DNA from: Elusimicrobiota bacterium
GTDB lineage: Bacteria > Elusimicrobiota > Elusimicrobia > FEN-1173 > JAKLIF01
DNA length: 64,000 bases
Direction: 5' to 3'
NCBI GenBank assembly: GCA_022709755.1
Contig: JAKLIF010000001.1
Location: 318,661-382,660, forward strand
Position 1 is the first letter of the stretch, and the number at the start of each line of letters is the position of its first letter. This document shows positions 5,343 to 57,063 of this stretch, one piece after another. The translations under genes and the position numbers were made by a program. The notes beneath the pieces were generated by a model. The model saw nothing but the letters and a program-made list of their open reading frames with translations. It did not search any database and was not told the origin of the DNA.

Positions 5343-6710
5343 CTAGCGGAGCCGCTCGAGGACCGAGCGGCCCGAACTCAACAACCGGGCGAACATCTCC
5401 GCCCGGACGAACGGATAAATCAGATACGGATGGCCCGATTCCAGGACGGCGGCCATCGTCTTCTCGTCAACCCGGTGATCGTCATCCTGCAGCACGACCA
5501 CGCGCCAAGCCCTCGGGAGAAAACCGTCCAACTTGGGATCGCGGGTCCGGCCCGCGTGATAGAGCAACGTGAGCCCGGCCGATTTGGCCGTCTCGAAATA
5601 GCCGCTGCCTTCTGATTCGTCCCCCCCGATCAAAACCAACGTCTCCCCCCGATAGACCGTCGGAACCGACCCGGAAGACGATTCCATCACCTTCTTCAGG
5701 ACCGCGATCGTGGTCCGCTGTTCGGATTGGGTCCGTTGGAGGACCGGGAGATCCCCCTGAAGTTTCACCGCCTCCTCCGACTTCTCCTCAAACACCCGTC
5801 TCAACCGAAGGAGCTCGTGCTCCAGTTCCGCCATCCTCTTCTGATTCTTCTTGATCCGGCCCTCCGCCTCCTGAAGGTCGGCGAGTCGCTTCTCCAACGA
5901 GGCTATTTTAGATTCCAGTTGAACCCGCGCCTTTTCTCCGGCGGAGCCGGCCTGCTGGAGTTTCTTCTGTTCTTCCGTCAGCCGGAGGATCCTCTCTTCC
6001 AGTTCCAGACGCCGATTGTTCTCCTCCCGCCAACGAGCCGACACCGCTTCTTTCTCGATGACCAGTTCATCGACCTCGTTTTTTAAGCGCTTGAGGTCGT
6101 CGCCCTCCTCCAGCGGCGGGAGTTTCCAAAAAGAGTCCTCCCCCTCGGGCGTGAGGCGGTTTTCCCCGGCCGCCCGGACGATCTCATCCAATTTCCCGTC
6201 CTTCTCGGAAACAGTCTTCAATATCTGGAACGCCAACCGACGGAGCGGCTCATTCGTCGATAGGAGGAACAGCCAGAACGTCAAGGGAAACCCCATCCGT
6301 TCGACGAACCGCCAGGGGTTCTTCTGGACATCCCCGACGTTGAGCATCTTCAGGGAATCCGTCTCTTTCCGATGGCCTTCCAGCCATTTCAGCACCAGGT
6401 GGGATTGGAACGGAAGCTCGCGTTGAAGCCGCTTCTTCAATATCTTCACGGCCTCCGCGCGGGGAACGCTGTCCGGACGGTAGCCATGGATCTTGAAACG
6501 AACCACGGTCTCCTTCGCCAGATCGTGCAATAACCGGGGATCCAGATCCTCCAGGAACCAGGTCAACAACGCGTCCGGGACAGACGGCGGGATGGGGAAT
6601 CGGGGCCCGACGGGGCGCGGGGGGACCCCGCGCTGTATGTTCTGTATCGCCCGGAGCGCGTCCAGGTGGATGTTCATTTTTTTAAACGGATCGGGAGGCG
6701 GATGGGGCAT
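5343..6710 (-). CDS. Hypothetical protein: central ~150-aa coiled coil plus a C-terminal alpha/beta domain of unknown function
   Basis: 455-aa ORF. Heptad-rich E/K/L/R segment (LKRLKNEVDELVIEKEAVSARWREENNRRLELEERILRLTEEQKKLQ...LADLQEAEGRIKKNQKRMAELEHELLRLRR). C-terminal LVLIGGDESEGSGYFETAKSAGLTLLYHAG... Last gene of the co-directional block that begins at the TonB-dependent receptor. Confidence 0.7.
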   Translation of the reverse strand: MPHPPPDPFKKMNIHLDALRAIQNIQRGVPPRPVGPRFPIPPSVPDALLTWFLEDLDPRLLHDLAKETVVRFKIHGYRPDSVPRAEAVKILKKRLQRELPFQSHLVLKWLEGHRKETDSLKMLNVGDVQKNPWRFVERMGFPLTFWLFLLSTNEPLRRLAFQILKTVSEKDGKLDEIVRAAGENRLTPEGEDSFWKLPPLEEGDDLKRLKNEVDELVIEKEAVSARWREENNRRLELEERILRLTEEQKKLQQAGSAGEKARVQLESKIASLEKRLADLQEAEGRIKKNQKRMAELEHELLRLRRVFEEKSEEAVKLQGDLPVLQRTQSEQRTTIAVLKKVMESSSGSVPTVYRGETLVLIGGDESEGSGYFETAKSAGLTLLYHAGRTRDPKLDGFLPRAWRVVVLQDDDHRVDEKTMAAVLESGHPYLIYPFVRAEMFARLLSSGRSVLERLR

Positions 6711-6721
6711 GGGCTCCTCTT

Positions 6722-7756
6722 TTATAAAGGCAAGGCGATGTACTCCAGATGAAGGACATCCTGAGTCAGGTTCTCGAAATAGTAAGGGCTATCCGGGGGG
6801 ATCAAGAGATATCCATAATCCATCTCCTGCTGTTCGGACCCGATGTAGGCCAGGCCGCGCCCTTTGCTCACCCGATAGATCAGGCTGAGCCCCTTCTCCC
6901 GCACGGTGACCGTCCTTCCTCCCGGAGGAACGATGAACCCACCCACCCGGTGAGGGGAATTCGTCGGGAGAAGCCCCTGCGACTGATAGAACGGGGCGAC
7001 GTCGAAACGGGCCGCTTCGGACAGTTCTCCGGGGGCCACGACCTGGGTGACCGGCCCCCGCGTCTTCTTGCCCGGAGTCTCGATGGCCTTGAGCAGTCTC
7101 CAGAGATCGCGCGCCAAAACCGCTTCCACCGACCAGTCCTCATGAGGGCGGCCCGGGGAGGACCGGGTCTCATCGGCCTGGATCAACAACGGGGGCATGG
7201 CATTATAGAGCAGTTGCCGCTCGGTCGCCGACTTCAACGACTCATAGCGGGTCATGATATCCCAATAGATCCGGCTTTCCGGCTCTCCCAGTCGCCGGCG
7301 AAGAAGAACGTCCTCCAACAACCCGTCGAATTCACGGCGATAGCGTTCCCAACTCTGAAATACCAGTTTTTCCGCTTCGGGGTCGGCCGGGACGGATCTT
7401 CCCCGGGACCGCTGCATCCGGACCGACTGAGACCGCTGCCGAAGGGATTGAACGTCGCCGTCGAGCGTCGTCGGGGGGGTCCCCCCCGCGACCTTGAACT
7501 GTTCGTGGAGCTCCCGAAGGCGTTCTTCTCCCAGTTTCGTGACCCGCTGATAGTCGTAGTGGGCGGCCCGCACGCGCTCGCAGGTCAACCGAGAGACAGC
7601 CTCCACATCGGCCTTGAACTGTCGGGACGAGGGCGGGTCTCCCGCCCAGAGCGTCGCGGGACAAAGGAGCGAAACGGACACCACGGCGATTCGGCATTGA
7701 TGAGAAAAAAAGACGGGCTTTGACATTCTCCGTCTGTGGAAGAGGGGCGGGATCAT
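6722..7756 (-). CDS. Hypothetical secreted protein (signal peptide), no recognisable domain
   Basis: Probable start at MSKPVFFSHQCRIAVVSVSLLCPATLWAG (signal peptide, start ~7726). 4-bp overlap with the upstream GT-C-like paralog (7753-7756). Confidence 0.65.
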   Translation of the reverse strand: MIPPLFHRRRMSKPVFFSHQCRIAVVSVSLLCPATLWAGDPPSSRQFKADVEAVSRLTCERVRAAHYDYQRVTKLGEERLRELHEQFKVAGGTPPTTLDGDVQSLRQRSQSVRMQRSRGRSVPADPEAEKLVFQSWERYRREFDGLLEDVLLRRRLGEPESRIYWDIMTRYESLKSATERQLLYNAMPPLLIQADETRSSPGRPHEDWSVEAVLARDLWRLLKAIETPGKKTRGPVTQVVAPGELSEAARFDVAPFYQSQGLLPTNSPHRVGGFIVPPGGRTVTVREKGLSLIYRVSKGRGLAYIGSEQQEMDYGYLLIPPDSPYYFENLTQDVLHLEYIALPL

Positions 7757-9537
7757 GATCTTAGTCTATCACGTATGAAACGGTTGGGCAACGAACCGGG
7801 AGGAGGCGACATCCCCGATTCCGTTCGTCCGTGACGGGACTTGAAAACAAAAAGATACACCCTCTCCGTCATCCGATAGCCGACCGCATCGCGATACGAA
7901 TCGAATATCTTCCGATACTTGGTTTTATCGACGAGTTTTTGGAGTCCCTCCATCGTTTCCCGACGGACAACCTCCACGGGGCTCCCCTCTCCCCGTTCAT
8001 CATCGACCACCATGAACAGATAGCGGCGACCGTCGAACAGTCCCAGATGCTTCCGTTGCCACTTCTTGCCGGGAGAGGGAAGGATATCATACATGTTCCA
8101 ATCGAAACGGATATCGTTATAAAATGCCTGGGAATCGACCAAATAGGACACCAAGCCCCAATGATTCCTGATCCCCTGCAGAGTCCCATCGGATTGTATC
8201 CTCACCCCGGTCTCCACAACGGGGATCGGGCCCCCCGGCGGGACCGGCTGTTCCTGTTTCAGGTAATGGAACAGCTGTCTCAGGTCATACAGTTCCTGAT
8301 AATAATCCCTCTCGTTGTATTCCCTCGAATGTCCGTGTTGGGGAGCCAAGACGTGGAACCCGGTCAGTGAAGCCAAACAAAACCATATCAGGAATCGTGT
8401 CTTGGGACCGGACCGCTGTATGATCCTCCAAGACAACAGCACGAAGAGCATGATCCCGGCCGAATAAAAAGCCGTGTAATTGCCGACATAAGTCCTCGGC
8501 ACGGCGATCAAGACCAAAAAATTTGCGGCCACAAACGACGAAAGGAACCCAAGAACCCTCCCCCCTTCTTCCGGCGGACGGGACTGCGCGGATTTCAACC
8601 GGATCCGATAATAGAGGAGCGCCACGGAACAGAACGAATAAAACACCGAAGGACCCCAATACCCCTTCAGGTCTCTCATCACGCTCATGAAAGCCCAAGG
8701 AGAACGACTTCCGATGGTGACCGCGTGGGCGCGAAGCAATCCCTTGAAATCGAAATACGGGAAACCATCCGTTAAAAACCGATTCAAACAATAATCCTCC
8801 CGATATCCATTCCCCAGCAGAAGGGCGACGAAGAAGAGGATGAAGACAACCGGCGCGAATTTTTTATCGGCCGAGAAGAACCAATACACCCAGATGATGA
8901 AAAAATAGAGGTAGGCCGAATAATGGATCCATGTGGAGACATAGAACAGAGCACCGAAGAGGATGAGATATCTCATCCTCCGGCCTTCCATATAAATCCA
9001 ATGAATGTGCAGGGCCCAGACAGTGACACAGGCCAGCGGCAAGAAACCGAAATAGCGTCGCGACATCGCAATGACGTTGGGGGTGGTCAGCAACAACATC
9101 GCCCCCACGAGACTGATCAATTCGTTCCGCGTTTGCCGGAAGAGGAACACAGAGACGGCCAGAGCCAACCCGAGCAAAGCCCAGATCATGCTCATCTTAT
9201 AGACAAACAAGGATTTTCCGAAGACCTGGAAACAGACCGCCAGGACCAGCGTTTGCAAATTCTTTCCATACCAATAGTCGCTCCGATGAAAGAGCAGGTC
9301 CCGAATGCTGTCGCGGATATAGCGGCCGGGATCCCGGTCATAATCCGAATACATCCCGGAAGCGGACAGGATCACACCATCGTGATCGAAAGCGAAGATC
9401 TGGTCGCTGATGGCATAACTCGAGTAATCCAGGACCGTATAGCCGACAATCAACGCCAAACAGAGCCCGAACAGAAGCGGGGTCTTATCAATCTTCGATA
9501 TGTCCAAGAGACGCCTCTCCGCGCGACCGGAAGACAA
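7753..9537 (-). CDS. GT-C-like polytopic membrane protein, paralog 1 of 5 (putative PMT_2/ArnT-like glycosyltransferase)
   Basis: 594-aa ORF. TM1 (LLFGLCLALIVGYTVL), then an ~80-aa loop with the acidic motif FAFDHDGVIL...YSDYDRDPGRYIRDSIRDLLFHR, then ~10 more TM helices, then a ~190-aa C-terminal soluble domain. This topology is typical of GT-C enzymes. Family assignment is a fold-level inference. Confidence 0.8.
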   Translation of the reverse strand: MSSGRAERRLLDISKIDKTPLLFGLCLALIVGYTVLDYSSYAISDQIFAFDHDGVILSASGMYSDYDRDPGRYIRDSIRDLLFHRSDYWYGKNLQTLVLAVCFQVFGKSLFVYKMSMIWALLGLALAVSVFLFRQTRNELISLVGAMLLLTTPNVIAMSRRYFGFLPLACVTVWALHIHWIYMEGRRMRYLILFGALFYVSTWIHYSAYLYFFIIWVYWFFSADKKFAPVVFILFFVALLLGNGYREDYCLNRFLTDGFPYFDFKGLLRAHAVTIGSRSPWAFMSVMRDLKGYWGPSVFYSFCSVALLYYRIRLKSAQSRPPEEGGRVLGFLSSFVAANFLVLIAVPRTYVGNYTAFYSAGIMLFVLLSWRIIQRSGPKTRFLIWFCLASLTGFHVLAPQHGHSREYNERDYYQELYDLRQLFHYLKQEQPVPPGGPIPVVETGVRIQSDGTLQGIRNHWGLVSYLVDSQAFYNDIRFDWNMYDILPSPGKKWQRKHLGLFDGRRYLFMVVDDERGEGSPVEVVRRETMEGLQKLVDKTKYRKIFDSYRDAVGYRMTERVYLFVFKSRHGRTESGMSPPPGSLPNRFIRDRLRS

Positions 9538-11326
9538 AAAGACGCGTGCCCGGATCCATCTGATAATCCACGAGATACTGGTACATTTCCATTACTTTTT
9601 TCAGGAATTTGGAATCCGCCAAGGACCTCATCTGATCCTCCACGTAGACATGATCAAACTTCATGCTTCGTTCAACCCCCTCCATGTGTTTGACAAGGAC
9701 GAACAGATAACGATACCCATCTAACACAGCCACGGCACGGTCATCCGGGGAGACCTCCTCAGGCGATGTTTTGGCCTTCGTCGTCAACGCGTCGAAATGA
9801 TACGGCCTAAAACGGACATCCTCATAGAAAGACTGCGCGTCCACAAAACAGCTCATCATGTAAACGTCACTGAAGTCCTTCTGATAGACCAATTGTTGCT
9901 GATTATTCAAGACCAATCCCGTCCGAAGAGACCCGATCTCCTTGGCTCCCCCTCCGTCCTCCGTTTGCCTGACGTAATGAAAGAACTGCCCCAAACCATC
10001 GCTCCCCTTTATTTCCGACGGGACCCCGAAGCGCCAAACCCCCCCGGCCCGCACGAGTTGCAGCGGGACGACGATAAACAGACAGGCCCATCCGACATTT
10101 CTGAACCAAACCGATGGACTCCTCGTCAAACCCCACGCCATCAAGACATAAAGCAGCGCGCCCGCCGAGTATAACACCACGTAACTCTCCGTCTTAACAA
10201 CGCCGATCAAGCGCATGATGACGATCAGCGAGACCATGATCGCCCCCAAGAACCGCATCGTCCGGATGGTCGCCGCCACCGGCTCCGGATTTTTCCTGTT
10301 CCCGATGAAACAGCGAAGGCCATAAACGATCAGGAGAAATCCGGACATATAAAACAGCGCTTCGCCATACTCCGCTTTCAGTCCATGATGGAAATCAGCC
10401 AGACCCGGACCCGGGTGTTTCCTCAAGAAAACCAGTCCGGAAGAGATCAGATCCGTCACCGGGCCATTCGGAGCGGCCGATCCCAGGATCGGTCCTATTC
10501 TCTTCTGAAACCGGCTCAACCACCACAACAATTGGTCCTTGTTCCATAACAGAACCGACAGATAAAATATCGAATAAACCGCGAGGAAACGACGCTCCTT
10601 CCACACGAACAGGCCGACGACGGCGAACATCATGAAATACAAATAGACCGAATAATGGATCCATGTGCCGACGACAAAAAGAGCGCACAACAGGGCGAAC
10701 CAGCGCCGCCCCCCCTCCTCCTGGTAACGGAGATACGCATAGAGCGCCCAGAGCGCCACGCAGGCCATCGGCAAAAATCCGAAATATCTTCGAGACATCG
10801 TGATCGTGTTCGTCATCGTCAATAAGAGCAGCGCCCCCCACAGGCCGGCCAGTTCACTCCGCGTTTCGCGATAAAGCAGGAGATAGGCGGCCAGGACCAG
10901 ACCCAGAAGCGCCCAGATCATGCTCATTTTATAGACGATCAATGTCTTTCCGAAAAGCATGAAGCAGCCCGCCAGGATCAGCGTCTGTAGATTCTTCGTA
11001 TACCACCGGTCTCCGCGGTGAAAAAGGATATCCTGAACGCTCTCCCGCAGATATCGCCCGGGAGCCCGCTGATCATAATCCGAATAGATCCGGGCGGAGG
11101 ACAAGATCATATAATCATGATCGATGACGTAATCGCGATCGGTGATTGAATACACATAATGGCCAGCCCAAGCATAGCCACAGACCGTCAGCAAGCAGAG
11201 ATAAAACAGGATCTTGTTCTTGAACAGACGGGTTTTCATCATCGGCCAGAGCGAGGAGAGACGGGAGGCCCCCCGTCCGGACAACGGGACCACGGGATTA
11301 ACGCGGGGCACTTCCTGCCCGAGCAT
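9488..11326 (-). CDS. GT-C-like polytopic membrane protein, paralog 2 of 5
   Basis: 612-aa ORF; true start probably MMKTRLFKNKILFYLCLLTV (~11242). Loop motif VIDHDYMILSSARIYSDYDQRAPGRYLRESVQDILFHRGDRWYTKNLQTL. Core ~60 % identical to paralog 1. Confidence 0.8.
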   Translation of the reverse strand: MLGQEVPRVNPVVPLSGRGASRLSSLWPMMKTRLFKNKILFYLCLLTVCGYAWAGHYVYSITDRDYVIDHDYMILSSARIYSDYDQRAPGRYLRESVQDILFHRGDRWYTKNLQTLILAGCFMLFGKTLIVYKMSMIWALLGLVLAAYLLLYRETRSELAGLWGALLLLTMTNTITMSRRYFGFLPMACVALWALYAYLRYQEEGGRRWFALLCALFVVGTWIHYSVYLYFMMFAVVGLFVWKERRFLAVYSIFYLSVLLWNKDQLLWWLSRFQKRIGPILGSAAPNGPVTDLISSGLVFLRKHPGPGLADFHHGLKAEYGEALFYMSGFLLIVYGLRCFIGNRKNPEPVAATIRTMRFLGAIMVSLIVIMRLIGVVKTESYVVLYSAGALLYVLMAWGLTRSPSVWFRNVGWACLFIVVPLQLVRAGGVWRFGVPSEIKGSDGLGQFFHYVRQTEDGGGAKEIGSLRTGLVLNNQQQLVYQKDFSDVYMMSCFVDAQSFYEDVRFRPYHFDALTTKAKTSPEEVSPDDRAVAVLDGYRYLFVLVKHMEGVERSMKFDHVYVEDQMRSLADSKFLKKVMEMYQYLVDYQMDPGTRLFVFRSRGEASLGHIED

Positions 11327-11332
11327 CGACGA

Positions 11333-13108
11333 TCACACCCCTTCCGAGGACGGGGGAACGCCACGTTTCGCTCGAAAGACGATGAGCCGGCGCCCCGGGG
11401 CCCCCATACCATAATGCACCAGATACCGATAGTTTCTCGTGACCTCCGCGAGAGCATTGTTTCCCGCCGTCTCTTTCACCGCAGAAAAAACCCGGTCCGG
11501 AAGAACATCCGAACCCTGCGGTGTGAACACGAAGAGGACGGGAATCTCTTTCGAAATATCTTTCTTCTTCCCCAATGAAGCATCCCCCCGTCTCCCCGCC
11601 GACAACCCCGCCTCCTCACACAGACCTTCCCATTCCAATCGCACGCCTCCATAAAAAGCCTGGGCGGTGATCAATTCATCGTGGATGTTCGGCCTCCCTT
11701 TAAACAACGGAGGGCACGTCCAGCGCGATTCTCCGGCCTTGTCTTTTTCTATGAAACCCACCATCGCCGGGATGGTCTTATCACCCGACGGGACATAATT
11801 ATTTTTTAAATAATGCATCAATTGGGAGAGGTCAATCATTTCATTGGACATCCGATAGGTATTGGAAGGCCGGGGGGCATTCCAAGACACCGCCATCACG
11901 GTGCCGACCAGACAGCTCCACGAGAACACCCTGAGCCAGGGGCCCCCCGACCGCCCCATATCCCACAAGATAAGAACGAAAAGCAAGACCCCCACCACAT
12001 AAAACACCACATAGTTGGACAATTGGACGATGTCGTTCATGAACATCGCCAGGGCGATGCCGGCCAAGACAGCGGCCAAAATCTTTATTCCAAACCGGGA
12101 CCTCGAGAGATCGTCGGCCTTCCTCTTTAAATGCCACAGAGCGTATAGGAACGCCGAAAAGACATAAAGATAGAATACCACTCCTCCGAACTGATATCGA
12201 AGTATGTCATACTCCGCTCGGTAATGCCGCGAGAAAATGCCGTGAATGACGTATCGACACGCCTTCATTGTTTTGTCCGCAATCCCGTTGAGTCCGCCCA
12301 GCGGGCCCTCCTCATAGAATTGCCACTGCAAGCCGAGTGTCTGATGGATGTTCATCATGAGTACCCCGACATAAAGAAGGAAGAAGAGCCCCGCGGAAGT
12401 CCGGCGACGAGGGATCATCAACAGGAGAACCCCCATCACAAGGAAATAGAGGTAGGCGGAATAATGGGTCCAACTGGCGACATAGAACACCCCGCAGAAA
12501 AGAAGGAAATACCGTTTCCCGTGATCCTGGAGATAAAGCAAGAAAGCACAGGCACCCCATAGGAACAGGCAAGCCAGGGGGATGAACGCAAAATACGTGC
12601 GAGACATCGCGACGATGTTCGGGATGAGGAGCATCAGGAGCGTTCCCAGAAGTCCGACCATTTCGCTTCGGGTCAGGACATACAAAATGCAGTATCCCGC
12701 CAGCGCGAGCCCGAGGAGCGCCCAGATCATGCTCATCTTATAGACGAACACCGTTTTCCCGAATAGTGCGAACAGGATGGCGAGGACCGTCGTATGGAGA
12801 CGACAGGCGTCCCCTTGCCGGCGCCAGGGAGCCACCATATCTTGAAAACACCGCCGAATGTAACCCGCCGGATCCTCCGAATACACCGAATAGAACCCGG
12901 CCTTCTCCAGAATGACGCAATCATGTTCGACCACGAAATTCCTATCACTGACGGCATATCCGTACTGCATCACGCACACATGAGCACAGATGAAGAGCAG
13001 GCATATCCCCGCAAGGATCTTGTTGTGATAGGACCGCATCAGGACAGTCCCCGCTCCGCCGATCCATCCGCGCAGAACAGCTGTCATACCGGTCATCGAC
13101 ACCGTCAT
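11333..13108 (-). CDS. GT-C-like polytopic membrane protein, paralog 3 of 5
   Basis: 591-aa ORF; probable start MRSYHNKILAGICLLF (~13039). Loop motif VVEHDCVILEKAGFYSVYSEDPAGYIRR. Core VYKMSMIWALLGLALAGY...MSRTYFAFIPLACLFLWG. Confidence 0.8.
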   Translation of the reverse strand: MTVSMTGMTAVLRGWIGGAGTVLMRSYHNKILAGICLLFICAHVCVMQYGYAVSDRNFVVEHDCVILEKAGFYSVYSEDPAGYIRRCFQDMVAPWRRQGDACRLHTTVLAILFALFGKTVFVYKMSMIWALLGLALAGYCILYVLTRSEMVGLLGTLLMLLIPNIVAMSRTYFAFIPLACLFLWGACAFLLYLQDHGKRYFLLFCGVFYVASWTHYSAYLYFLVMGVLLLMIPRRRTSAGLFFLLYVGVLMMNIHQTLGLQWQFYEEGPLGGLNGIADKTMKACRYVIHGIFSRHYRAEYDILRYQFGGVVFYLYVFSAFLYALWHLKRKADDLSRSRFGIKILAAVLAGIALAMFMNDIVQLSNYVVFYVVGVLLFVLILWDMGRSGGPWLRVFSWSCLVGTVMAVSWNAPRPSNTYRMSNEMIDLSQLMHYLKNNYVPSGDKTIPAMVGFIEKDKAGESRWTCPPLFKGRPNIHDELITAQAFYGGVRLEWEGLCEEAGLSAGRRGDASLGKKKDISKEIPVLFVFTPQGSDVLPDRVFSAVKETAGNNALAEVTRNYRYLVHYGMGAPGRRLIVFRAKRGVPPSSEGV

Positions 13109-13120
13109 ATTGGAACGCCC

Positions 13121-14941
13121 CTAGACACCCTCATCACGCGCCCCGGCGGGTCCCGCCTCACGGCTCCCCGCGGGCCTTTTCCCATAGACGTAGAAATACA
13201 GCCCCTCGGTCGCTTTAAAACCGGTCATATAACGGAACGGGCTGAATATCTTCCGATAAGCAACGGAGCCGATGTTATCCCGGATGACATGGGCTACCCG
13301 TTCTTGGGTGGCCTCTGTCGCCATGTCTTGGCGGTCACGCCAGTCGACCAAGACGATCAGATAGTGATATTCGGAGGCTGTATCCGCCGCTTTGTCCGGA
13401 GGGATCCATTTACCGACAAAACCGGGCAAATGGGTCTCGAGCGGATCGAAGTATTGTGTCTGGAATATCACGTCATGGAAGAATGCCGGAGAATCAAGGT
13501 AATTCCTGAACGGGTGTATATAATAAAAGTTGCCGACATATTTCAACTGTCCGTCGGGAGCGGCGCGAAGACCCGTCCGCAACGTTTTAATGACAGTCAT
13601 CCCGTCCATGTTCCGGAATCCTTTCATGTAGTCCACGAGAAGACCCGGATCATACACATCCCGCGGATAATCTCTTTCATTATATGCGGGAGGGTGTCCG
13701 TGGTACGGCGACGCCGCATGATACAACGCCAGACCGACCAGGCAAATCCAAGCCGATCCGCTGACCCAACTATTTTCATACCGGCTTAATTCCCATAACA
13801 CCAAGACCGTCAACAGGATCCCGGCCACATAGACGGAAAGGAAATTGATGCTTTCCACGCACACGAACACGTTCATAATGAGGAAGCTGCCCGCCAAGAA
13901 CGCCGCCAGAAGCATCATCGCCTTCCTGGTTGCGCAATCCGACCACTTCCGTCCTCTCCGGAGAGAGCCGGCATAAACCAGGATGCCGAGGATGAGCGCA
14001 TAAAACACATTGCTCCCCAAATGGCCCCGGAAGTTCATGATGATGCCCTTCAAAGCGTTCCAAGAGGTGTCTTCGAAGATATAGCCGACATAAGCCTTGA
14101 CGCGCAGGAGAATGCCGATGTCAGCGGACGGAGCGCCCCCTACTGTTTCAGCGCCGAAAAGCATGCTGAACCATAGAGCATATTTAGGGCTGTTCCAAAG
14201 AATGATCCCGATGACGATCGATAGGAACGACAATGCGGCACGCCGGTCTTGGATCAGCCAATAGGCGCCGAAGATCCCGGCATAGAGGTAGATCGAATGA
14301 TGGGCCAATGAGCCCAGATAAAATAATGCGCACACCATTGCGAAGTAACTCGTCCTCCTGTTCTCCTCATACAACAGAAAGACATGGAACGCCCACAACA
14401 ACAGGCACGCCACCGGCAGGAAACCAAAATATTTCCGGGAGTTTGTGATCACGCTTGGGAGTGTCACCAGGAGGAGGGTCCCCGACAAAGCGGTCAATTC
14501 GCTTTTTGTCTGCCTGAACAGGAACACGTACGCGGCCAACGCCAAACCCAACAACCACCACACTAAACTCATTTTATAGGCCACCAACGTTTGGCCGAAC
14601 ACCAGAAAGAACAACGACAGTGTCAGAGATTGGATGGTCTGGCCGCGCCAGTTCTCCCCCCGGTGAAGGACCATCCCCTGAACACCCTCTTTGATGTGTG
14701 ACCAGGGCCCGTATTCCTCATTATCGAATATATGCGCGAGATGCAAATAGGGATAATCATGATCCACCGCAAAGGAGGGATCGCTGACAGCATATCCCCA
14801 TTGCATCAGGACGACATACCCACACAGGAACACGATACACATCCAATGCAAAACCCCGCCGGAATATACTTTTGATGATTTGATCGAATGGTTCATCGTC
14901 TCAAGCCACTGCGCCATGAAGAAGGTCCGTTGGTCATGCAT
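13121..14941 (-). CDS. GT-C-like polytopic membrane protein, paralog 4 of 5
   Basis: 606-aa ORF. Loop motif AVDHDYPYLHLAHIFDNEEYGPWSHIKEGVQGMVLHRGENWRGQTIQSL. Core AYKMSLVWWLLGLALAAYVFLFRQTKSEL...NSRKYFGFLPVACLLLWA. Confidence 0.8.
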   Translation of the reverse strand: MHDQRTFFMAQWLETMNHSIKSSKVYSGGVLHWMCIVFLCGYVVLMQWGYAVSDPSFAVDHDYPYLHLAHIFDNEEYGPWSHIKEGVQGMVLHRGENWRGQTIQSLTLSLFFLVFGQTLVAYKMSLVWWLLGLALAAYVFLFRQTKSELTALSGTLLLVTLPSVITNSRKYFGFLPVACLLLWAFHVFLLYEENRRTSYFAMVCALFYLGSLAHHSIYLYAGIFGAYWLIQDRRAALSFLSIVIGIILWNSPKYALWFSMLFGAETVGGAPSADIGILLRVKAYVGYIFEDTSWNALKGIIMNFRGHLGSNVFYALILGILVYAGSLRRGRKWSDCATRKAMMLLAAFLAGSFLIMNVFVCVESINFLSVYVAGILLTVLVLWELSRYENSWVSGSAWICLVGLALYHAASPYHGHPPAYNERDYPRDVYDPGLLVDYMKGFRNMDGMTVIKTLRTGLRAAPDGQLKYVGNFYYIHPFRNYLDSPAFFHDVIFQTQYFDPLETHLPGFVGKWIPPDKAADTASEYHYLIVLVDWRDRQDMATEATQERVAHVIRDNIGSVAYRKIFSPFRYMTGFKATEGLYFYVYGKRPAGSREAGPAGARDEGV

Positions 14942-14944
14942 GTC

Positions 14945-16714
14945 TCAGGGCCTCCTGTTCCGATAGACGGTGAGTGTCATCCCCATGTCGATCGGATAAT
15001 GGGCCAGTAAACGATAAGACTCACCCATTCTCCGGTGCGACAACGGGTCCCCGTTTTGTTCTAAATATTTCTCAAAACATCGCGCCCGACCCTCCCGATC
15101 GTCCATCTCCCGGCGCTCATCGCCCACGAACACGAAGAGATAATCATATGGCTTCCCCCCTCGATCCATGTCATTATCCACCAAATCCCGCATGGCTTTC
15201 TGCGATGCGAGCCCCGCCGGGGGATTCAAAATAACCCACGATATCCTCATGGAGCTGTAAAACGCCCTTGAATCCAAGCAAGAGATGTTCTTTTTGAGGT
15301 CGTACATCTTATCGCACTGCCCGCCGGATCCCATTTCCGCCCCCGCGACGAGGCAAACCGTGGATCCCCGTTTTGAGGCATCTTGTTCCGTTTGGATATA
15401 GTGCATGAGTTGAACCAAATCGAGCTCTTCTCCCTGCCCCCAATATTTGCGGACACGCTCGTATCGGGCCGAATAAACATCCTGTTGAGACAGCACCAAG
15501 ACAACAAGGATCCCGAAGACACAGGTCCCCATCCATCGGGGCATATATCGACTCATATCCCATAACAAGAGTGTCAACAAAATGGCTTCGAGCACATAGA
15601 ACATGGTGAAATTTCCCGCCGCCACACCCGACGTCATCAACATGACGGACAACAGGGCCCCCATGCAAAACAAAAGAAAGGCGACGACGGCGTCGACCTC
15701 TCTTTTTCCGTCGATCCGAGGTCTGATGTATTTCCGATGAAACCAGATATAGACCGGCAACAGAGCCGCCAACAGGGAATAGGTGGCCGGCCCCCCGTGC
15801 CTCTTCAGTCCTCGGAAACAGAACATCATCCCTCGATAGAAATCATGTCCATCACCCACGGCCAAGGGAGTCAACGGGAGCCCCCCATGGAATAAATTCA
15901 GGAACGAAAAAAACCATCTCGGCATGACGTTCATGTCCTTATAGAAGAGCATGAAAAACACGAGGAGGAATGCGATCGCAACGCGCCTCGTGTTCGGCCG
16001 CAAAAACAAATAAAAACCCAATATCCCGAAATAAAGATATCCCGAATAATGGGTTCGGACGGCCATAAAGAACAACATGATGAAAAAAAAGAAATCCCTC
16101 CACCGAAAACACCGGCACATCGAGATACACAGGTTCAAAGCCCACATCATGACGCAGGCCAAGGGAAGAAAACCGAAGTACAAACCAGCCATTTTCACGA
16201 CGTTGGGAAGGACCAATACAAGGAGTGTTCCCAGAAAAGCCGTCATTTCCATCTTGGTCTGCCGATAAAGAAAGACATACACGCCGAACGCCAACCCCAA
16301 TAAAGCCCAGACCATGCTCATTTTGTAGACGAACAGGGTCTTGCCAAAAAAGATGAAACAGAGGGCAAGGATCAGCGTATGAGGACTATATCCTCTTCTC
16401 CCATCGCCGAAACTGAACAACCGGCGCAACGACACCCGAACGTACCCAGGGGGGTTTTGGCTGAACAAAGCGCCCCCCCCCATGAACCCGGCGGCAGTCA
16501 ATATGTCGTAATCATGGTCCGGAGCCACGACGCGATCCGTGATGGCGAATCCATATTGGCCGAGAATGACATAGCCGGTGATGAACAAAAGGCAGAACCA
16601 ATGAAGAAGGACCGATTGATAGGGTTTATTGAATAATGTTGGTTTCATCATCAGACCGATGGGCACGGCGGGAGCCGGCATGGAGCGGAAAGGGGTCATG
16701 GGGCCTGCCATCAA
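14945..16714 (-). CDS. GT-C-like polytopic membrane protein, paralog 5 of 5
   Basis: 589-aa ORF; probable start MMKPTLFNKPYQSVLLHWFCLLF (~16651). Loop motif VAPDHDYDILTAAGFMGGG. Core VYKMSMVWALLGLAFGVYVFLYRQTKMEM...LYFGFLPLACVMMWA. Confidence 0.8.
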   Translation of the reverse strand: MMAGPMTPFRSMPAPAVPIGLMMKPTLFNKPYQSVLLHWFCLLFITGYVILGQYGFAITDRVVAPDHDYDILTAAGFMGGGALFSQNPPGYVRVSLRRLFSFGDGRRGYSPHTLILALCFIFFGKTLFVYKMSMVWALLGLAFGVYVFLYRQTKMEMTAFLGTLLVLVLPNVVKMAGLYFGFLPLACVMMWALNLCISMCRCFRWRDFFFFIMLFFMAVRTHYSGYLYFGILGFYLFLRPNTRRVAIAFLLVFFMLFYKDMNVMPRWFFSFLNLFHGGLPLTPLAVGDGHDFYRGMMFCFRGLKRHGGPATYSLLAALLPVYIWFHRKYIRPRIDGKREVDAVVAFLLFCMGALLSVMLMTSGVAAGNFTMFYVLEAILLTLLLWDMSRYMPRWMGTCVFGILVVLVLSQQDVYSARYERVRKYWGQGEELDLVQLMHYIQTEQDASKRGSTVCLVAGAEMGSGGQCDKMYDLKKNISCLDSRAFYSSMRISWVILNPPAGLASQKAMRDLVDNDMDRGGKPYDYLFVFVGDERREMDDREGRARCFEKYLEQNGDPLSHRRMGESYRLLAHYPIDMGMTLTVYRNRRP

Positions 16715-16785
16715 CGGAAAAGATCCGTCATATCTTCTGAAAACCGATCATCCGGAAATTCCGGGGAGCCGCACAATCCCGCCGG

Positions 16786-18696
16786 TCAGTCGACGAACCA
16801 GATCGTGATTCCCGCCCAATAAGTCCTCGCCACATTGGGGACCAACCCGGTGCTGACGGATTCGATGAAACGCTTGTTCGTTATATTATCCACACCGAGA
16901 TAAAGATCGGAACTCAGGATCTTCTTGACCAACCTCGCGTGCCAGAGGGTATAGGAGGGGAACCTCATCCCCTGTTCGTTATCATATTGAAAACGATGGT
17001 GCACGTATTGCACCGTATTGATCAACCTCCATTTTCTGGGGAGAGAAGTCGTCAGGCGATAGTTCGCCGTATGACGGGGCGTCATCTGGAGCGGGACGTA
17101 ACGATAGGACCCCATGGAGTTCCCGATCGCCCGCTGATAGGTGTAATTGATACTCTCCTCGAAGGGTCCCCAACGCGAATCCATCTCCGCCTCGCCCCCC
17201 GTCACCTCGGCCCGCGGAGCATTCTCATAAACCGCCGATTTCGCCGCAATCCGTTCCCTCAACTGAGAATGAAAACCCGTCAGTTTCAACGAGAATGTCT
17301 TTCCAGACCGCCATTCCGTCCCGGCGTCATAAGTCCAGGCGGTTTCGGGTCTCAAGAAGATATTCCCCAAAGTTCCGCTCGACGAGTAGAGTTCGGTGAA
17401 CGAGGGGGCGCGGAACGAGCGGGCGGCGCTGCATGAAAGCCTCCAATTCGGGGTGGCCCGAAAAACGATCGCCAATCGTGGATTCACCACGTTACCGAAC
17501 GCGCTGTGCTGGTCCAGTCGCACTGTGGGGATCAGATCGCATCGGTCTCCCTCCCAATGCTCCTGCACGGTGACGCCCCACGAGGCGGCATGATGCGGCG
17601 TTCCCCCCTCAATCAACTCTTCATCCCGTTCATAGGAACCCCCGACGCTGAAACCGCCGGGGAACTGAAGTCGCGTGGTGTTTCCGACGACCTGGTTGAC
17701 CCGTTCCATATCCGGATCAGCACCGCTGGACGGACGGGTCAGATATTTCTGTCTGGACCCATAGGACATCGTCTGCAATCCCGCGGGGGACTCCCCGAGG
17801 GGGAGCGACAAGGTGAGCCGACCCAGATCGGTCGTCTGTTCCACACGACGCCATCGGTTCGACGGCTCTTTTTCCCGCCGCCCATCCCACCGGTCAACGG
17901 GAATCGGGGTCCCCTGGGGATCTCCGGTCTCCTGACTCACGCGGGACAGGGCCAGGGAGATCCGCGTTCCGTTCTGGGCCGTGTATTCGCCATTCCCGGT
18001 CAGAGCCGCATTGTGCCCCTCGGAATTCGTCTGGTATCCACCCGTGTAATACTTGCTCCCCGTGATATAGGTATCAAACCCCTTGCCCCCCGTGCCCAGT
18101 TGAGCGTTATACATGCGGACCGGATAAGAACGTCTTTCCCCGCTGGAAATCGGATAAGAGCGGGTTTGATATCCGAAAGAAGAATGGGCCTTCTCGGCGG
18201 TGTGCCGTTTGGTGATGACATCGATGACCCCGCCCAAGGTGTTGGCTCCATGGACCATGGAGGACCCTCCTCGGACGACCTCAATCTTCTCGATGTTATC
18301 GACGGGGATCTGAGAGAGATCGACGAACTGGGAAGAGACCCCTCCCAACGGCTGGCCATCGATCAGGATCCGGCACGAGGCGGGCGACGGCAGTCCCCTC
18401 ATCCGGCATGTTGCCATGGAACCCAAGGCGCCCGTCTTCTGGACGTCGATCGAAGGCAATCGGTCCAGGACGTCGGCCAGAGATTGGCCTCCCGTGTTCC
18501 GAATCTCCTCTTTCCGGTAGACAGTGATATTGGTGGGTAAGCGGCGTGAATCTGTCTTTGACAGCGTATAGGACAAAAACTCCGAATCCGGATCGACCTT
18601 CTGCGCCGCCATCGACCGCGTCTTCGTAAAAAAGAATGTGATCGTCGCCAATGCGACGAAGGTTCTTAGCCGCATCTCAAATGAGACAAAAAACAT
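16786..18696 (-). CDS. TonB-dependent outer-membrane receptor
   Basis: Signal peptide (MRLRTFVALATITFFFT). Plug-domain motifs ...ITVYRKEEIRNTGGQSLADVLDRLPSIDV... and IEKIEVVRGGSSMVHGANTLGGVIDVITK. Long beta-barrel region rich in alternating aromatic residues. C-terminus ...TYWAGITIWFVD. Confidence 0.88.
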   Translation of the reverse strand: MFFVSFEMRLRTFVALATITFFFTKTRSMAAQKVDPDSEFLSYTLSKTDSRRLPTNITVYRKEEIRNTGGQSLADVLDRLPSIDVQKTGALGSMATCRMRGLPSPASCRILIDGQPLGGVSSQFVDLSQIPVDNIEKIEVVRGGSSMVHGANTLGGVIDVITKRHTAEKAHSSFGYQTRSYPISSGERRSYPVRMYNAQLGTGGKGFDTYITGSKYYTGGYQTNSEGHNAALTGNGEYTAQNGTRISLALSRVSQETGDPQGTPIPVDRWDGRREKEPSNRWRRVEQTTDLGRLTLSLPLGESPAGLQTMSYGSRQKYLTRPSSGADPDMERVNQVVGNTTRLQFPGGFSVGGSYERDEELIEGGTPHHAASWGVTVQEHWEGDRCDLIPTVRLDQHSAFGNVVNPRLAIVFRATPNWRLSCSAARSFRAPSFTELYSSSGTLGNIFLRPETAWTYDAGTEWRSGKTFSLKLTGFHSQLRERIAAKSAVYENAPRAEVTGGEAEMDSRWGPFEESINYTYQRAIGNSMGSYRYVPLQMTPRHTANYRLTTSLPRKWRLINTVQYVHHRFQYDNEQGMRFPSYTLWHARLVKKILSSDLYLGVDNITNKRFIESVSTGLVPNVARTYWAGITIWFVD

Positions 18697-18720
18697 CCTT
18701 CATCATCGGATCGCGTCCCC

Positions 18721-19077
18721 TCAACCCAACTTCTTCATTTTAGCCAAAAGCCCGATCACCTCGGTCGTCTTGCTTCTAAACGGTGATTGGGGGTTGTCGA
18801 GTATGGCCAACGCCTCGGTGATTTTATTCGAATTAACCAGATTGACGATTTCCGCAGCGTATCGATGGAACTCCGCATGAATCTCAATCAATTTCTGGAA
18901 ATCGGGGGAACTCCCGAATTTTTCCTTCGCCTCTCCGTGGATCCATTTCCCCAGATCACACCGGTTATCTTTATTGACCAGATTCGAATCCAGGTTCTCT
19001 TTTCGATCGGCTTTGCAATAATCCCGAAGTCTCATCTTCCAATTCACATGAGCCTGCATGGCTTCATCGATGTTCAT
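18721..19077 (-). CDS. Stand-alone CZB (chemoreceptor zinc-binding) domain protein
   Basis: 118 aa with the CZB signature H-x2-W ... C-x-LGKW-x-H ... FH (AHVNWKMRLRDYCKADRK...NRCDLGKWIHGEAKE...EIHAEFHRY). GC content markedly lower (~48 %) than surrounding genes. Confidence 0.8.
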   Translation of the reverse strand: MNIDEAMQAHVNWKMRLRDYCKADRKENLDSNLVNKDNRCDLGKWIHGEAKEKFGSSPDFQKLIEIHAEFHRYAAEIVNLVNSNKITEALAILDNPQSPFRSKTTEVIGLLAKMKKLG

Positions 19078-19272
19078 GACACACCTCCATCGTCATTAAA
19101 GTCATTTTCATTATAAGAGTATTACCCGTAAACCGCAACAGCATATTCCCGCCGGGGAACACCCCCGACCACCGTCTTTTCAGTATTTAAAACGCGGGCC
19201 GCGCGGAAACGACACGATTAATCTTCTCACTCGGGCGTCCTTATCTTATAATTCTACCAGGAAGCGACAGAC
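19078..19272. promoter_or_regulatory. Divergent promoter region between the CZB gene (-) and the SGNH hydrolase gene (+)
   Basis: AT-rich. TATAAT at 19247-19252, ~20 nt upstream of the SGNH ATG, with an AGGAAG SD. On the other side it is the likely promoter for the CZB-TonB-dependent receptor-GT-C block. Confidence 0.3.
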
Positions 19273-20229
19273 ATGGCATTTTTTCATACATTAAAAACAT
19301 CCTTCTCCACGCTCATCAAGATCGCCGGGAAAATCATCCTCATCTTGATCCTCACCGAGATCGTATTGGGTACCACTGGAATCCTGCTTTTAACCTACTA
19401 CAGGCATTTCGTCTATTCCAAGATCCCGTTATTAAAGGACGAACACAGGATTCTGTTTATCGGCGAATCGACGACCTGTGGAGACGGCTCCACCAACAAA
19501 CAAACGGACTCATACCCGGCCCAACTTGAAAGGATTCTGAATTCTCAAACCCCCCGCAACCGGTTCCGGTCGATCAATATCGGGTTCGGCGGTCTGACGA
19601 CAGAACACATGCTCAGAGACCTAAAAGAAAATATCTATCGGTATAAGCCAGACATCGTGGTGATCCAGGCGGGATTCAACAATTGTTCCCCCAGCCTGTT
19701 CACCCTATTCAAAGGCCAATCCTTGCCGGCGGCCTGGAGGAAGATCGTCATCATGAAATTGGAGATGTCGCGGACCTATCGTCTCATGAAATGGGCCTAT
19801 GAGTCCGTCTGGAAACAATGTTTGCTGCGCTACCTGCAGAACCGTGGGTTCACCCCGACATCAAATCCGGGGTTTTGGGTGACCGACATGTATCCGGAGG
19901 AATACCAAATAACGAAGGTGGAATCGGAAATACACCTATGCCGGATGATCGAAATCCTCCGCGAACACAACATCCCGCTCGTCCTGTGCGGGTATTTCAT
20001 CGCCGAAGACGAGAACATCATGCTGCGCCGGTTATCAAAGACATACGCCGTCCCCTTTTGCGACAATGAGTTGGAGGACACGCCGTTCAATAGAAAGGAA
20101 TACATATCCGTGGACCAATTCCATCCCAACACGAACGGATATTTCCTCATCGCCCAGAATCTATTCAAGACGTTGACCGACCATCATCTCATCCCAGAAA
20201 CCCCTTCCGACCCGTCCACCGCGTCTTGA
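19273..20229 (+). CDS. Membrane-anchored SGNH/GDSL-family hydrolase (esterase/acyl-hydrolase, possibly carbohydrate O-acyl esterase/transferase)
   Basis: N-terminal TM helix (IILILILTEIVLGTTGILLLTYY). Block I FIGESTTCGDGS (GDS-like with nucleophile Ser). Block V DQFHPN (catalytic Asp/His). Low GC (~45 %). AGGAAG SD 8 nt upstream. Confidence 0.8.
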   Translation: MAFFHTLKTSFSTLIKIAGKIILILILTEIVLGTTGILLLTYYRHFVYSKIPLLKDEHRILFIGESTTCGDGSTNKQTDSYPAQLERILNSQTPRNRFRSINIGFGGLTTEHMLRDLKENIYRYKPDIVVIQAGFNNCSPSLFTLFKGQSLPAAWRKIVIMKLEMSRTYRLMKWAYESVWKQCLLRYLQNRGFTPTSNPGFWVTDMYPEEYQITKVESEIHLCRMIEILREHNIPLVLCGYFIAEDENIMLRRLSKTYAVPFCDNELEDTPFNRKEYISVDQFHPNTNGYFLIAQNLFKTLTDHHLIPETPSDPSTAS

Positions 20230-20260
20230 CTTTTTTGACCAACTCGGCTAAAGTCTTGTC

Positions 20261-52791: not shown

Positions 52792-52792
52792 T

Positions 52793-56623: not shown

Positions 56624-57061
56624 TCACGCGGAGAGCCGCTTCATCTTAAGGAAGGCGGGCCGTGCGAACAGCGCCTTCTGCCCGTGCAGTTGTTCGGAGA
56701 AACCGAACCGCTTGAAGATGTTCTCCCGATCCGTAATGGCAAGGACTTCATACACGCGCTTTTTCTTCGCCTCGCGCAGACATCGGTCCACAAGACCGCT
56801 CGCGATCCCGCGGCCGCGATACCTGTCATGGACCGCCAATGACCGGATCTCCGCCAATTTCCGGTTATAAGTCTCCAGTGCACAACAAGCCACCACGTCT
56901 TCATTCTCTTCCGCGACCCAGAAATGGTGGATCAGCCCTTTGATCTCGGCCTTGGATCGTTTCAGAATCTTCCCGCTTTTCTTCGCCAAGCGGATCAACT
57001 CATGGATGCGAGTCACGTCACGTTCCTGGGCCTTTCGAATAACGATCTTTCCGCTCATCAT
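56624..57061 (-). CDS. GNAT-family N-acetyltransferase
   Basis: Probable start MMSGKIVIRKAQERDVTRIHELI... Acetyl-CoA motif LAVHDRYRGRGIASGLV. ATGA overlap with the upstream gene. Confidence 0.75.
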   Translation of the reverse strand: MMSGKIVIRKAQERDVTRIHELIRLAKKSGKILKRSKAEIKGLIHHFWVAEENEDVVACCALETYNRKLAEIRSLAVHDRYRGRGIASGLVDRCLREAKKKRVYEVLAITDRENIFKRFGFSEQLHGQKALFARPAFLKMKRLSA

Positions 57062-57063
57062 GT

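Follow-up and report, generated by a model that had tools for sequence, protein, structure and literature searches.

Five tandem, diverged paralogs of a rare GT-C-type membrane protein family in Elusimicrobiota

The array and its genomic setting

The DNA analysed here, a 64,000-nucleotide stretch of an Elusimicrobiota genome that we call the window, carries on its minus strand five consecutive ORFs of 589–612 aa, all in the same direction (positions 7753–16714). They belong to a longer co-directional block, given here from its first gene to its last:

18721..19077, minus strand: CZB (chemoreceptor zinc-binding) domain protein, 118 aa, first in the block
16786..18696, minus strand: TonB-dependent receptor (Plug plus barrel, BtuB-like), 71 nt upstream of the array
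14945..16714, minus strand: paralog 5, 589 aa, first gene of the array
13121..14941, minus strand: paralog 4, 606 aa, GT-C family
11333..13108, minus strand: paralog 3, 591 aa, identical to NCBI PK876_01670
9488..11326, minus strand: paralog 2, 612 aa, GT-C family
7753..9537, minus strand: paralog 1, 594 aa counted from a TTG
6722..7756, minus strand: cupin-like protein, 344 aa or, counted from the second ATG, 334 aa; its N-terminus resembles a signal peptide
5343..6710, minus strand: coiled-coil protein, 455 aa, last in the block

The intergenic gaps of the array measure 3, 12 and 6 nt, and at the paralog 2/paralog 1 junction the genes overlap by 50 nt, or by 20 nt with the start that gene callers give to paralog 1 (position 9507, 584 aa); this is the spacing of 3–12 bp or overlap that an initial, sequence-only reading of this DNA had described. 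The same reading took the five for tandem, co-directional and diverged paralogs, and BLASTP bears this out, as all 10 pairs match over their full length (28–35% identity, E 1e-45 to 1e-97) and 52 columns of the five-way alignment are invariant. Judged by these alignments, the five ORFs are true paralogs. The identity of their DNA is at most 60–80%, conserved core included, which indicates that the duplications are old and under protein-level selection, and which rules out recent gene conversion as the source of the conserved core; together with the intact reading frames, it argues that selection maintains each copy. In NCBI, PK876_01670, from an Elusimicrobiota MAG, is a 'hypothetical protein'.

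The genes flanking the array are probably not its functional partners. In a relative (locus L016), an ortholog of the receptor (47% identity, 619 aa) is directly followed by an ortholog of the cupin-like protein (52%), with no GT-C gene and accompanied by a FecCD/ABC/binding-protein importer. Receptor and cupin are contiguous there; the array interrupts this pair, and we dropped both genes as candidate partners. The cupin-like protein has a homolog, P0028, that is 52% identical and carries the source label 'cupin superfamily'; the cupin-like protein itself has no PDB sequence match. Neither a GT2 donor synthase nor a flippase was found near the array in the 64-kb window. The array lacks both and lies inside a TonB-receptor/cupin pair; as a glycosylation operon it is not self-contained.

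Relatives of the five proteins are few. The whole family comprises 21 representatives among 1.84 billion proteins, and at least nine members occur in this genome, five in the array and at least four elsewhere. A pattern scan of the GTDB genome collection found no relative, word-indexed protein searches returned essentially self matches only, and a metagenome scan added a single new locus, which is single-copy. Of these relatives, P0007 is surrounded by LpxK, lipid A acyltransferase, GT4, Wzy_C and KdsB-like genes, P0016 adjoins a GT9 heptosyltransferase-family gene, and the distant members P0008 and P0017 adjoin a GT2 that best matches polyprenyl/dolichyl-P sugar synthases, with no flippase identified beside them. 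GT2, B12-radical-SAM and carbamoyltransferase genes all occur in the company of distant members.

Homology, fold and topology

All five paralogs stay below every curated Pfam and NCBIfam threshold. With PMT_2 (PF13231; cut-off 26.1 bits), the best of them scores 12.4 bits (E 0.18) and the other four have no match. One link to this family comes from P0007, which passes PMT_2 (29.7 bits against the 26.1-bit gathering cut-off), matches the paralog profile with an E value of 1.5e-101 and is nested within the clade with bootstrap 100/100. The fringe members P0020 and P0021 also pass PMT_2 (47.3 and 37 bits), and the PMT profile PF02366 matches, within the family, P0021 only. In hhalign, a family alignment from which all PMT_2-positive members had been left out matched ArnT/PMT_2 at 92.8% (E 4e-7) and 95.8% (E 8e-9), and a reversed control gave 2.0%. 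The match was not significant against two ArnT sequences alone (E 0.15); PDB sequence-profile searches with the 5- and 21-sequence alignments gave no match, nor did a PDB sequence search with the isolated C-terminal domain, and single-sequence searches starting from a canonical PMT_2 neighbour or from P0021 fell short of ArnT.

Structure points the same way. For the AF2 model of paralog 1 (pLDDT 79.5, pTM 0.81), the top 31 Foldseek matches are all GT-C, with probability 1.0; Emb structures appear among the fold matches, and the likeness to solved GT-C enzymes spans the TM domain, at approximately 10% identity to ArnT. An earlier AlphaFold run on the five paralogs alone (pLDDT 57) was left out of the fold search. 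The GT-C assignment, already proposed in the sequence-only reading, is thus supported by three independent lines: the PMT_2 pass of P0007, the profile-profile match and the fold. The family is a very rare, unannotated GT-C branch, and the array is a lineage-specific expansion of a known kind of enzyme, not a new kind of system.

In the model, 11 TM helices are joined by a C-terminal alpha/beta domain (residues ~420–570), and the loop EL1 (residues 43–116) contains helices at 54–59, 65–83 and 94–115. Lysine plus arginine per residue amounts to 0.225 in the cytoplasmic loops versus 0.103 in the periplasmic ones, and every cytoplasmic loop has a positive net charge, so that the positive-inside rule supports a periplasmic location for EL1 and for the C-terminal domain. 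We infer from the model a protein with 11 TM helices and its N-terminus inside, in which the catalytic loop EL1 and the C-terminal domain would both be periplasmic, in agreement with the location first proposed for them. Treating helix 94–115 as a TM segment clashes in parity, as it makes the C-terminal domain cytoplasmic, and was ruled out by homology to ArnT JM2 and by the positive-inside rule; the short helix that bears the FG motif belongs to loop 1 as a juxtamembrane helix and does not span the membrane. The protein shows the traits of GT-C_A enzymes, namely 7–13 TM helices and a long first extracytoplasmic loop with juxtamembrane helices and a conserved Asp. Since the model has 11 TM helices in total, about five follow the conserved core, instead of the approximately eight counted at first.

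Conserved centre and proposed function

Two short motifs of paralog 1 mark the putative active site:

9379..9405, minus strand: DQIFAFDHD, residues 45–53, in loop EL1 just past TM1 (translated from these positions)
8917..8925, minus strand: HYS, residues 205–207, in loop EL3; His205 aligns with ArnT Lys203

The five-way alignment recovers the motifs that had been quoted for these genes: the acidic cluster after TM1, which reads DHD in the paralogs and EHD in paralog 3, and the TM cores VYKMSMIWALLGLALA, SRRYFGFLPLAC and WIHYSxYLYF. Asp45, His52, Asp53, Lys114 and His205 are kept in all five copies; the motif exceptions are copy 3, with Glu instead of Asp51, and paralog 5, the only copy in which Gly replaces the near-universal Arg160 of loop EL2 (R160G). 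Across 16 family sequences, D45, D53, P70, G107, H205 and F472 are invariant, so conservation of the acidic loop extends to distant homologs, and His205 is the only residue invariant across all 21. DQIFAFDHD is a candidate catalytic and metal-binding acidic motif, possibly equivalent in position to ArnT D55/E56 and the PMT DE motif, although the equivalence of D53 or D45 to ArnT D55 falls in a low-confidence stretch of the alignment. Lys114 sits at the position of the Arg in ArnT 'QAR', which we take to be that of Arg138 in Pmt1.

Conservation is uneven along the proteins. Mean identity among the five copies is 42–44% in EL1 and the TM2–TM7 core, 22% in the C-terminal domain and 17% in EL4, so that EL4 is the most divergent region and the C-terminal domain, originally ranked first, comes second. 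In solved GT-Cs, substrates are engaged by these two regions. This focus of divergence fits differing acceptor specificities, and the idea of a multi-specificity cassette put forward in the sequence-only reading would agree with it.

We consider it likely that each gene encodes an inner-membrane GT-C, of GT-C_A type, that transfers a lipid-linked sugar to an envelope acceptor, with specificities that likely differ among the copies. If the mechanism resembles that of ArnT, PMT and Gtr-type enzymes, a GT2 in the cytoplasm would attach the sugar to polyprenyl phosphate, and the lipid-linked sugar would then be flipped across the membrane, held by the GT-C in the groove of its conserved TM2–TM7 module and moved onto the envelope acceptor at the periplasmic face, where EL1 with two juxtamembrane helices, EL4 and the ~180-aa C-terminal alpha/beta domain would lie. 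The EL1 acids, Asp45 and Asp51-His52-Asp53, would act as the base and might also bind a metal, in a centre that may also include Lys114, Arg160 (EL2) and the invariant His205 (EL3). The genomic context of P0008 and P0017, with their neighbouring GT2, suggests a polyprenyl-phosphate sugar as the donor at the extracytoplasmic face. As the copies keep the centre and diverge most in EL4 and in the C-terminal domain, they would most likely serve different acceptor sites or linkages. Among acceptors, LPS (lipid A, core or O-chain) is the best candidate, given that sister paralogs sit in LPS gene clusters.

A bolder and distinctly tentative version is that these proteins found a CAZy-level GT-C family of their own, with a DHD/His205 metal-type centre in which Arg160 replaces the Asp of ArnT that contacts the cationic Ara4N. 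The sugar might then be anionic, or heavily tailored by carbamoylation or C-methylation, and come from the GT2, B12-radical-SAM and carbamoyltransferase genes that keep company with distant members, and the array might form a combinatorial, possibly hetero-oligomeric, cassette for glycan diversification.

Other explanations are less probable than LPS decoration by independent enzymes. The acceptors could be proteins, each paralog being a PMT-like or TfpW-like periplasmic O-glycosyltransferase for one protein or sequon, the TonB-dependent receptor or the cupin-like protein, for example. We regard this as unlikely: no MIR or PMT (PF02366) domain was matched in the five paralogs, the DE dipeptide is absent from the first 100 residues of all five, the linkage to the flanking genes looks incidental given their adjacency without a GT-C in L016, and the sister paralogs lie in LPS clusters and not beside candidate glycoproteins. 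It is also conceivable, with still lower probability, that the copies do not act independently, but form hetero-oligomers (cf. Pmt1-Pmt2, EmbA-EmbB) with regulatory or inactive subunits, or handle or flip lipid-linked sugars, as has been proposed of Agl23-type proteins. Against this, all copies share the five residues of the centre, the best TIGR03663 score among the paralogs (18 bits) is far under its cut-off of 126, and the age of the duplications, together with the intact ORFs, points to selection on every copy.

A role in a TonB-dependent uptake locus, where a co-regulated array would modify or process the transported substrate or the receptor, would account for its place on the receptor's strand, 71 nt downstream and with no convincing terminator between, and for its overlapping or abutting the cupin gene. 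This is nonetheless improbable, since the L016 orthologs lie side by side with an importer and without a GT-C, other family members are never near such genes, the GC3 of the array is lower than that of its neighbours, and no cobalamin or other riboswitch was found upstream of the BtuB-like receptor. Finally, that these are no glycosyltransferases at all, but transporters, O-antigen polymerases or ligases, or other polytopic membrane proteins, is barely credible: only the want of a curated family match in the five proteins would favour it, the structural matches and the hhalign link to ArnT/PMT_2 contradict it, and none of the outcomes first named as adverse (a transporter, an O-antigen polymerase, a cytoplasmic or non-conserved acidic loop) was found.

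Significance and relation to known systems

GT-C enzymes build and remodel envelope glycoconjugates, from LPS and lipid A modifications to arabinan and glycosylated proteins, and envelope remodelling governs antibiotic resistance, phage resistance and immune recognition. New GT-C sequence families are still being founded (GT136 in 2024). The family described here escapes the curated Pfam/NCBIfam models and has an altered catalytic constellation, and its expansion is unusually large, old and species-specific, in an uncultured and poorly known phylum. If the specificities are distinct, the paralogs would point to an elaborate periplasmic glycan-decoration system in Elusimicrobiota and would offer a natural series of acceptor specificities on one catalytic scaffold. 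Since the family shares its fold, topology and general mechanism with an enzyme class that is already well understood, known biology is extended here, not overturned.

The likenesses and differences with known systems are as follows: (i) ArnT (GT83; the lipid A 4-amino-4-deoxy-L-arabinose transferase; PDB 5EZM/5F15) and PMT_2 (PF13231) are the closest. ArnT has 13 TM helices versus 11 in our model, and the roles of its residues, including the Asp158–Lys203 salt bridge and Lys85 of EKPP, have been described (PMC7801869). The family carries DHD in EL1 where ArnT has D55/E56; hhalign sets Arg160/161 against the ArnT Asp158 region and His205 against Lys203, so that Arg160 stands where ArnT has a substrate-binding Asp, and the equivalent of Lys85 is not conserved. 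The ArnT active-site set (Asp55, Asp158, Lys203, EKPP Lys85) is therefore not that of this family and, as neither Asp158 nor Lys203 is retained as such, the chemistry of the paralogs may differ. No arnBCADEF-type genes were found in the 64-kb window. (ii) In PMT (GT39; Pmt1-Pmt2 6P25/6P2R, Pmt4), the MIR domain occupies a big luminal loop, whereas the extra domain of this family is C-terminal. (iii) Oligosaccharyltransferases (STT3/PglB/AglB, GT66) are marked by a WWDxG motif in their C-terminal domain; none of the five copies contains WWD or W[WY]DxG. (iv) Three-component periplasmic glycosylation systems (GtrA/GtrB/Gtr*, and the GT136 ORF12 systems) combine a GT2 polyprenyl-P-sugar synthase, a flippase and a periplasmic GT-C (PMC11127046). 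The expected logic is the same, distant family members adjoin such a GT2, and the serotype-specific GT-Cs of Gtr systems likewise act with different specificities on one glycan, but the array consists of five GT-Cs without a synthase or flippase. (v) Tandem sets of GT-C paralogs are found in the mycobacterial embCAB arabinosyltransferases and in RgtA/RgtB (with RgtC) of Rhizobium, which act on Kdo of the LPS core. RgtA and RgtB are listed as galacturonosyltransferases (PMC4402001). As in the array, diverged GT-Cs are encoded together, and in the known sets they transfer from polyprenyl-P donors to different positions of one envelope glycoconjugate; in contrast, the array has five copies (plus at least four elsewhere in the genome) where those sets have three, and the similarity that it shares with them is detectable in the fold, not in the sequence.

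An old tandem expansion in a rare family

The sequence-only reading had proposed five tandem, co-directional and diverged paralogs, and this is borne out by the proteins themselves: all ten BLASTP pairs align over approximately their full length (E 1e-45 to 1e-97, 28-35% identity), 52 columns are invariant in the five-way alignment, and every motif quoted in that reading was found in the five copies.

Genes of the co-directional block (window positions)
18721-19077, minus: CZB protein, first gene of the block
16786-18696, minus: BtuB-like TonB-dependent receptor, upstream of the array
14945-16714, minus: paralog 5, ORF of 589 aa
13121-14941, minus: paralog 4, ORF of 606 aa
11333-13108, minus: paralog 3, ORF of 591 aa
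9488-11326, minus: paralog 2, ORF of 612 aa
7753-9537, minus: paralog 1, ORF of 594 aa
6722-7756, minus: cupin-like protein with a signal-peptide-like N-terminus, downstream of the array
5343-6710, minus: coiled-coil protein, end of the block

The array genes are separated by 3, 12 and 6 nt, and the last junction is a 50-nt overlap (20 nt if the start of the public gene callers is used). Since inter-copy DNA identity is only 60-80%, even across the most conserved protein segment, the duplications are old and similarity is kept by protein-level selection; recent gene conversion is ruled out on the same ground. Averaged over all pairs of the five copies, identity is 44% in the TM2-TM7 core, 42% in the first extracytoplasmic loop (EL1), 26% in TM8-TM11, 22% in the C-terminal alpha/beta domain and 17% in EL4. 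In solved GT-Cs the equivalent loop (PL4 of ArnT, EL5 of PglB) and extra periplasmic domains engage substrates, and the divergence pattern would be expected if the copies differed in acceptor or linkage specificity.

The family is very small, extremely rare and unannotated. Word-indexed searching of 5.8 billion proteins gave self matches only, a pattern scan of 185,579 species (one genome each) found no relative, and HMMER, run exhaustively over 1.84 billion cluster representatives, recovered only 21 family proteins, the five query copies among them. The window is identical in sequence to contig DAOOTU010000002.1 of Elusimicrobiota MAG GCA_035390445.1, and JGI metagenome contigs of samples 3300010429 and 3300025706 match it as well. 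Locus tags and accessions place four further homologues (P0006, P0007, P0016 and the P0008-like P0026) in the same MAG, so that at least nine family members occur in one genome. In a neighbour-joining tree the tandem copies form a clade with P0006 and P0007 (100/100 bootstrap), these two dispersed members nesting among them. The other family loci examined hold one copy each and, among these loci, the five-copy array is so far specific to the Elusimicrobiota species of the window.

Fold, topology and candidate active site

None of the five proteins reached curated Pfam or NCBIfam thresholds, the best sub-threshold matches, both on the TM core, being PMT_2 (E 0.18) and TIGR03663/Agl23 (E ~1e-3). 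P0007, which NCBI names 'glycosyltransferase family 39 protein', aligned along its entire length with the paralog profile (E 1.5e-101) and passes the PMT_2 gathering score in the same segment (29.7 vs 26.1 bits). With all PMT_2-positive sequences taken out, the remaining 16-sequence family alignment matched ArnT/PMT_2 profiles in hhalign (92.8%, E 4e-7), and a richer ArnT/PMT_2 template free of family members at 95.8% (E 7.9e-9) against 2.0% for its reversed-template control; versus two ArnT sequences alone the match was non-significant (E 0.15), with the register unchanged.

AlphaFold gave a poor model from the five paralogs as only input (pLDDT 57), and one of pLDDT 79.5 and pTM 0.81, with most of the TM core above 90, from the 21-sequence alignment. 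The best 31 Foldseek matches to this model were all GT-C structures (probability 1.0), including Pmt2, STT3B, AglB, AftB, AftD and AftA, and transporters came up only beyond E 0.07, their TM-scores being about 0.1; the transporter and polymerase readings, which the sequence-only reading had named as refuting its GT-C proposal, are thus excluded.

Counting every model helix as transmembrane was rejected owing to a parity conflict. In ArnT, Lys85 opens the second juxtamembrane helix of loop 1, while EL2, which precedes TM4, contains Asp158, and EL3, which follows TM5, contains Lys203 (PMC7801869). A short FG-containing helix (residues 94-115, paralog 1 numbering) corresponds to that juxtamembrane helix in the hhalign register, which leads to 11 TM helices and a cytoplasmic N-terminus. 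EL1 (43-116), EL2 (159-164), EL3 (205-207), EL4 (245-295), EL5 and the C-terminal domain (398-594) are predicted to be periplasmic. The positive-inside rule agrees with this topology across the 16 sequences: each proposed cytoplasmic loop is net positive (0.225 K+R per residue overall), and the short periplasmic loops have 0.103, most of it from conserved Arg160.

Asp45, Asp53, Pro70, Gly107, His205 and Phe472 are invariant in the 16 sequences, and Lys114, Thr136 and Arg160 nearly so; His205 is the sole residue invariant in all 21. It pairs with ArnT Lys203 whatever the alignment mode, and Arg160/Arg161 falls on or beside ArnT Asp158. Lys114 is aligned to the Arg of the ArnT 'QAR', a position that is probably also that of Pmt1 Arg138. 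The latter forms a salt bridge with Glu78 (PMC7801869). At the TM1 exit, 6-8 residues past Asp45, the DHD of the family occupies the position of D55/E56 in ArnT and of DE in PMTs, Asp53 standing opposite ArnT Asp55 within a low-confidence extension of the alignment. The five copies have no DE dipeptide within their first 100 residues and no WWDxG motif, and a Pfam search of them found no MIR domain. The catalytic constellation thus looks unlike that of ArnT, PMT or oligosaccharyltransferases. Arg in place of Asp at a position that contacts the sugar would speak against cationic sugars such as Ara4N, and DHD together with His205 suggests a putative metal site. Because all five copies keep the conserved residues, except for Asp51 to Glu in paralog 3 and Arg160 to Gly in paralog 5, they look catalytically competent.

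Paralog 5 alone has AGL where the others have the EL2 Arg (SRR/SRK/SRT), and P0007, alone in its clade, lacks D45, H52 and D53 and has H45, D51, F52 and G53; these changes suggest active-site sub-functionalisation within the expansion.

Genomic setting and proposed role

At L016, a relative's locus with no GT-C gene, a cupin-like orthologue (52% identity) comes immediately after a receptor orthologue (47% over 619 aa), and the pair lies downstream of a periplasmic-binding-protein/FecCD/ABC importer. No receptor- or cupin-type genes lie near other family members, and array GC3 is 0.65-0.68 versus 0.70-0.77 in its neighbours. The simplest reading of these comparisons would be that the array was inserted, and then expanded, inside an uptake locus, so that the receptor and cupin neighbours are probably not functional partners. 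The array may nonetheless be transcribed from the receptor promoter, as the two are separated by 71 nt in which no convincing terminator lies. A riboswitch search found none. The L016 relative (GC 0.72) also carries, after the cupin homologue, a giant opposite-strand gene (10973-20927) whose 8289-residue product runs past the locus end and has no Pfam match.

The rest of the window holds no GT2 donor synthase or flippase, the remaining genes being housekeeping. P0007 neighbours LpxK, a lipid A acyltransferase, a GT4, a Wzy_C ligase-type protein, a PMT_2-LmeA protein and a KdsB-like gene; P0016 adjoins GT9 and polysaccharide-deacetylase genes; P0006 starts 6 nt past a canonical PMT_2 gene; and P0008, P0009, P0012 and P0017 share a recurring cluster of a ~240-aa GT2, B12-binding radical-SAM enzymes and a NodU-like carbamoyltransferase, the best NCBIfam matches of the GT2 (AglJ, PpgS, Dol-P-hexose transferase, ArnC) being all below cut-off. 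In three-component periplasmic glycosylation (PMC11127046) a GT-C works with a flippase and a polyprenyl-P-sugar synthase, and the relatives' gene contexts fit this scheme. They make envelope glycolipid (LPS) modification the most likely role. The window's MAG holds a P0008-like gene in the same GT2 context, and the GT2 of that locus could supply the donor for the array.

The cluster (L009 9198-15044; L011 193-5163; L012 9181-13700; L021 6302-17947) has one or two radical-SAM enzymes, with HpnJ as best, sub-threshold match, and its GT2 is polyprenyl-P sugar synthase-like; at L021 it also includes a canonical PMT_2, a GDSL hydrolase and a GT2-radical-SAM fusion. It looks like an uncharacterised pathway making and transferring a tailored (methylated or carbamoylated) sugar. 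GDSL/SGNH hydrolase genes recur near the array (window 19273-20229, plus, divergently transcribed), near the P0017 cluster (L021 5240-6289) and near cupin-protein homologues (L017 3468-4127), which may be coincidence or a link to glycan O-acyl handling. Downstream of P0006, a defence-island-like run (L004 12665-21725; same MAG, contig DAOOTU010000001.1) encodes Peptidase_M78, TIR_2, an AAA_21/AAA_15 ATPase, PDDEXK_4 and a >1100-aa protein without a Pfam match.

Other features of the window
8923-9693, 12794-13789, 6749-7723 and 17506-18540, plus: ORFs of 256-344 aa antisense to GT-C, cupin and receptor genes, with Arg/Pro/Gly-rich, low-complexity translations; as genes, almost certainly artefacts of GC-rich sequence
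57064-58995, minus: 643-aa ORF (GTG start) with SAM-methyltransferase, Csd3_N2 and M23 peptidase domains, which shares sequence with the 5' end of the GNAT acetyltransferase ORF that follows it (56624-57241); either a genuine fusion or a reading frame extended too far
2112-2184, plus: tRNA, the window's only Rfam match, before the alkaline phosphatase
2235-4499, plus: 754-aa alkaline phosphatase with CarboxypepD_reg/SdrD_B and C-terminal FlgD_ig-like domains
51313-55078, minus: GH130 (mannoside phosphorylase family) gene adjoining a 761-aa GT4 glycosyltransferase, possibly a mannoside synthesis/recycling pair, with no relation to the array

Comparison with known systems

The array proteins belong to the GT-C fold superfamily and to the PMT_2 homology group, and their predicted working mode resembles that of ArnT, PMT or Gtr-type GT-C transferases. 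Rgt enzymes act on the LPS core (PMC4402001). The proteins are not members of the ArnT/GT83, PMT/GT39 or OST families, because the residues or domains that define these, when tested, were not found. Since tandem GT-C sets are precedented by Rgt and by embCAB, itself a tandem set of paralogs, the array as such is not new in kind; what is new is an unannotated, extremely rare family with an altered catalytic signature, and its old expansion within a single uncultured Elusimicrobiota species, which has at least nine members including the tandem five.
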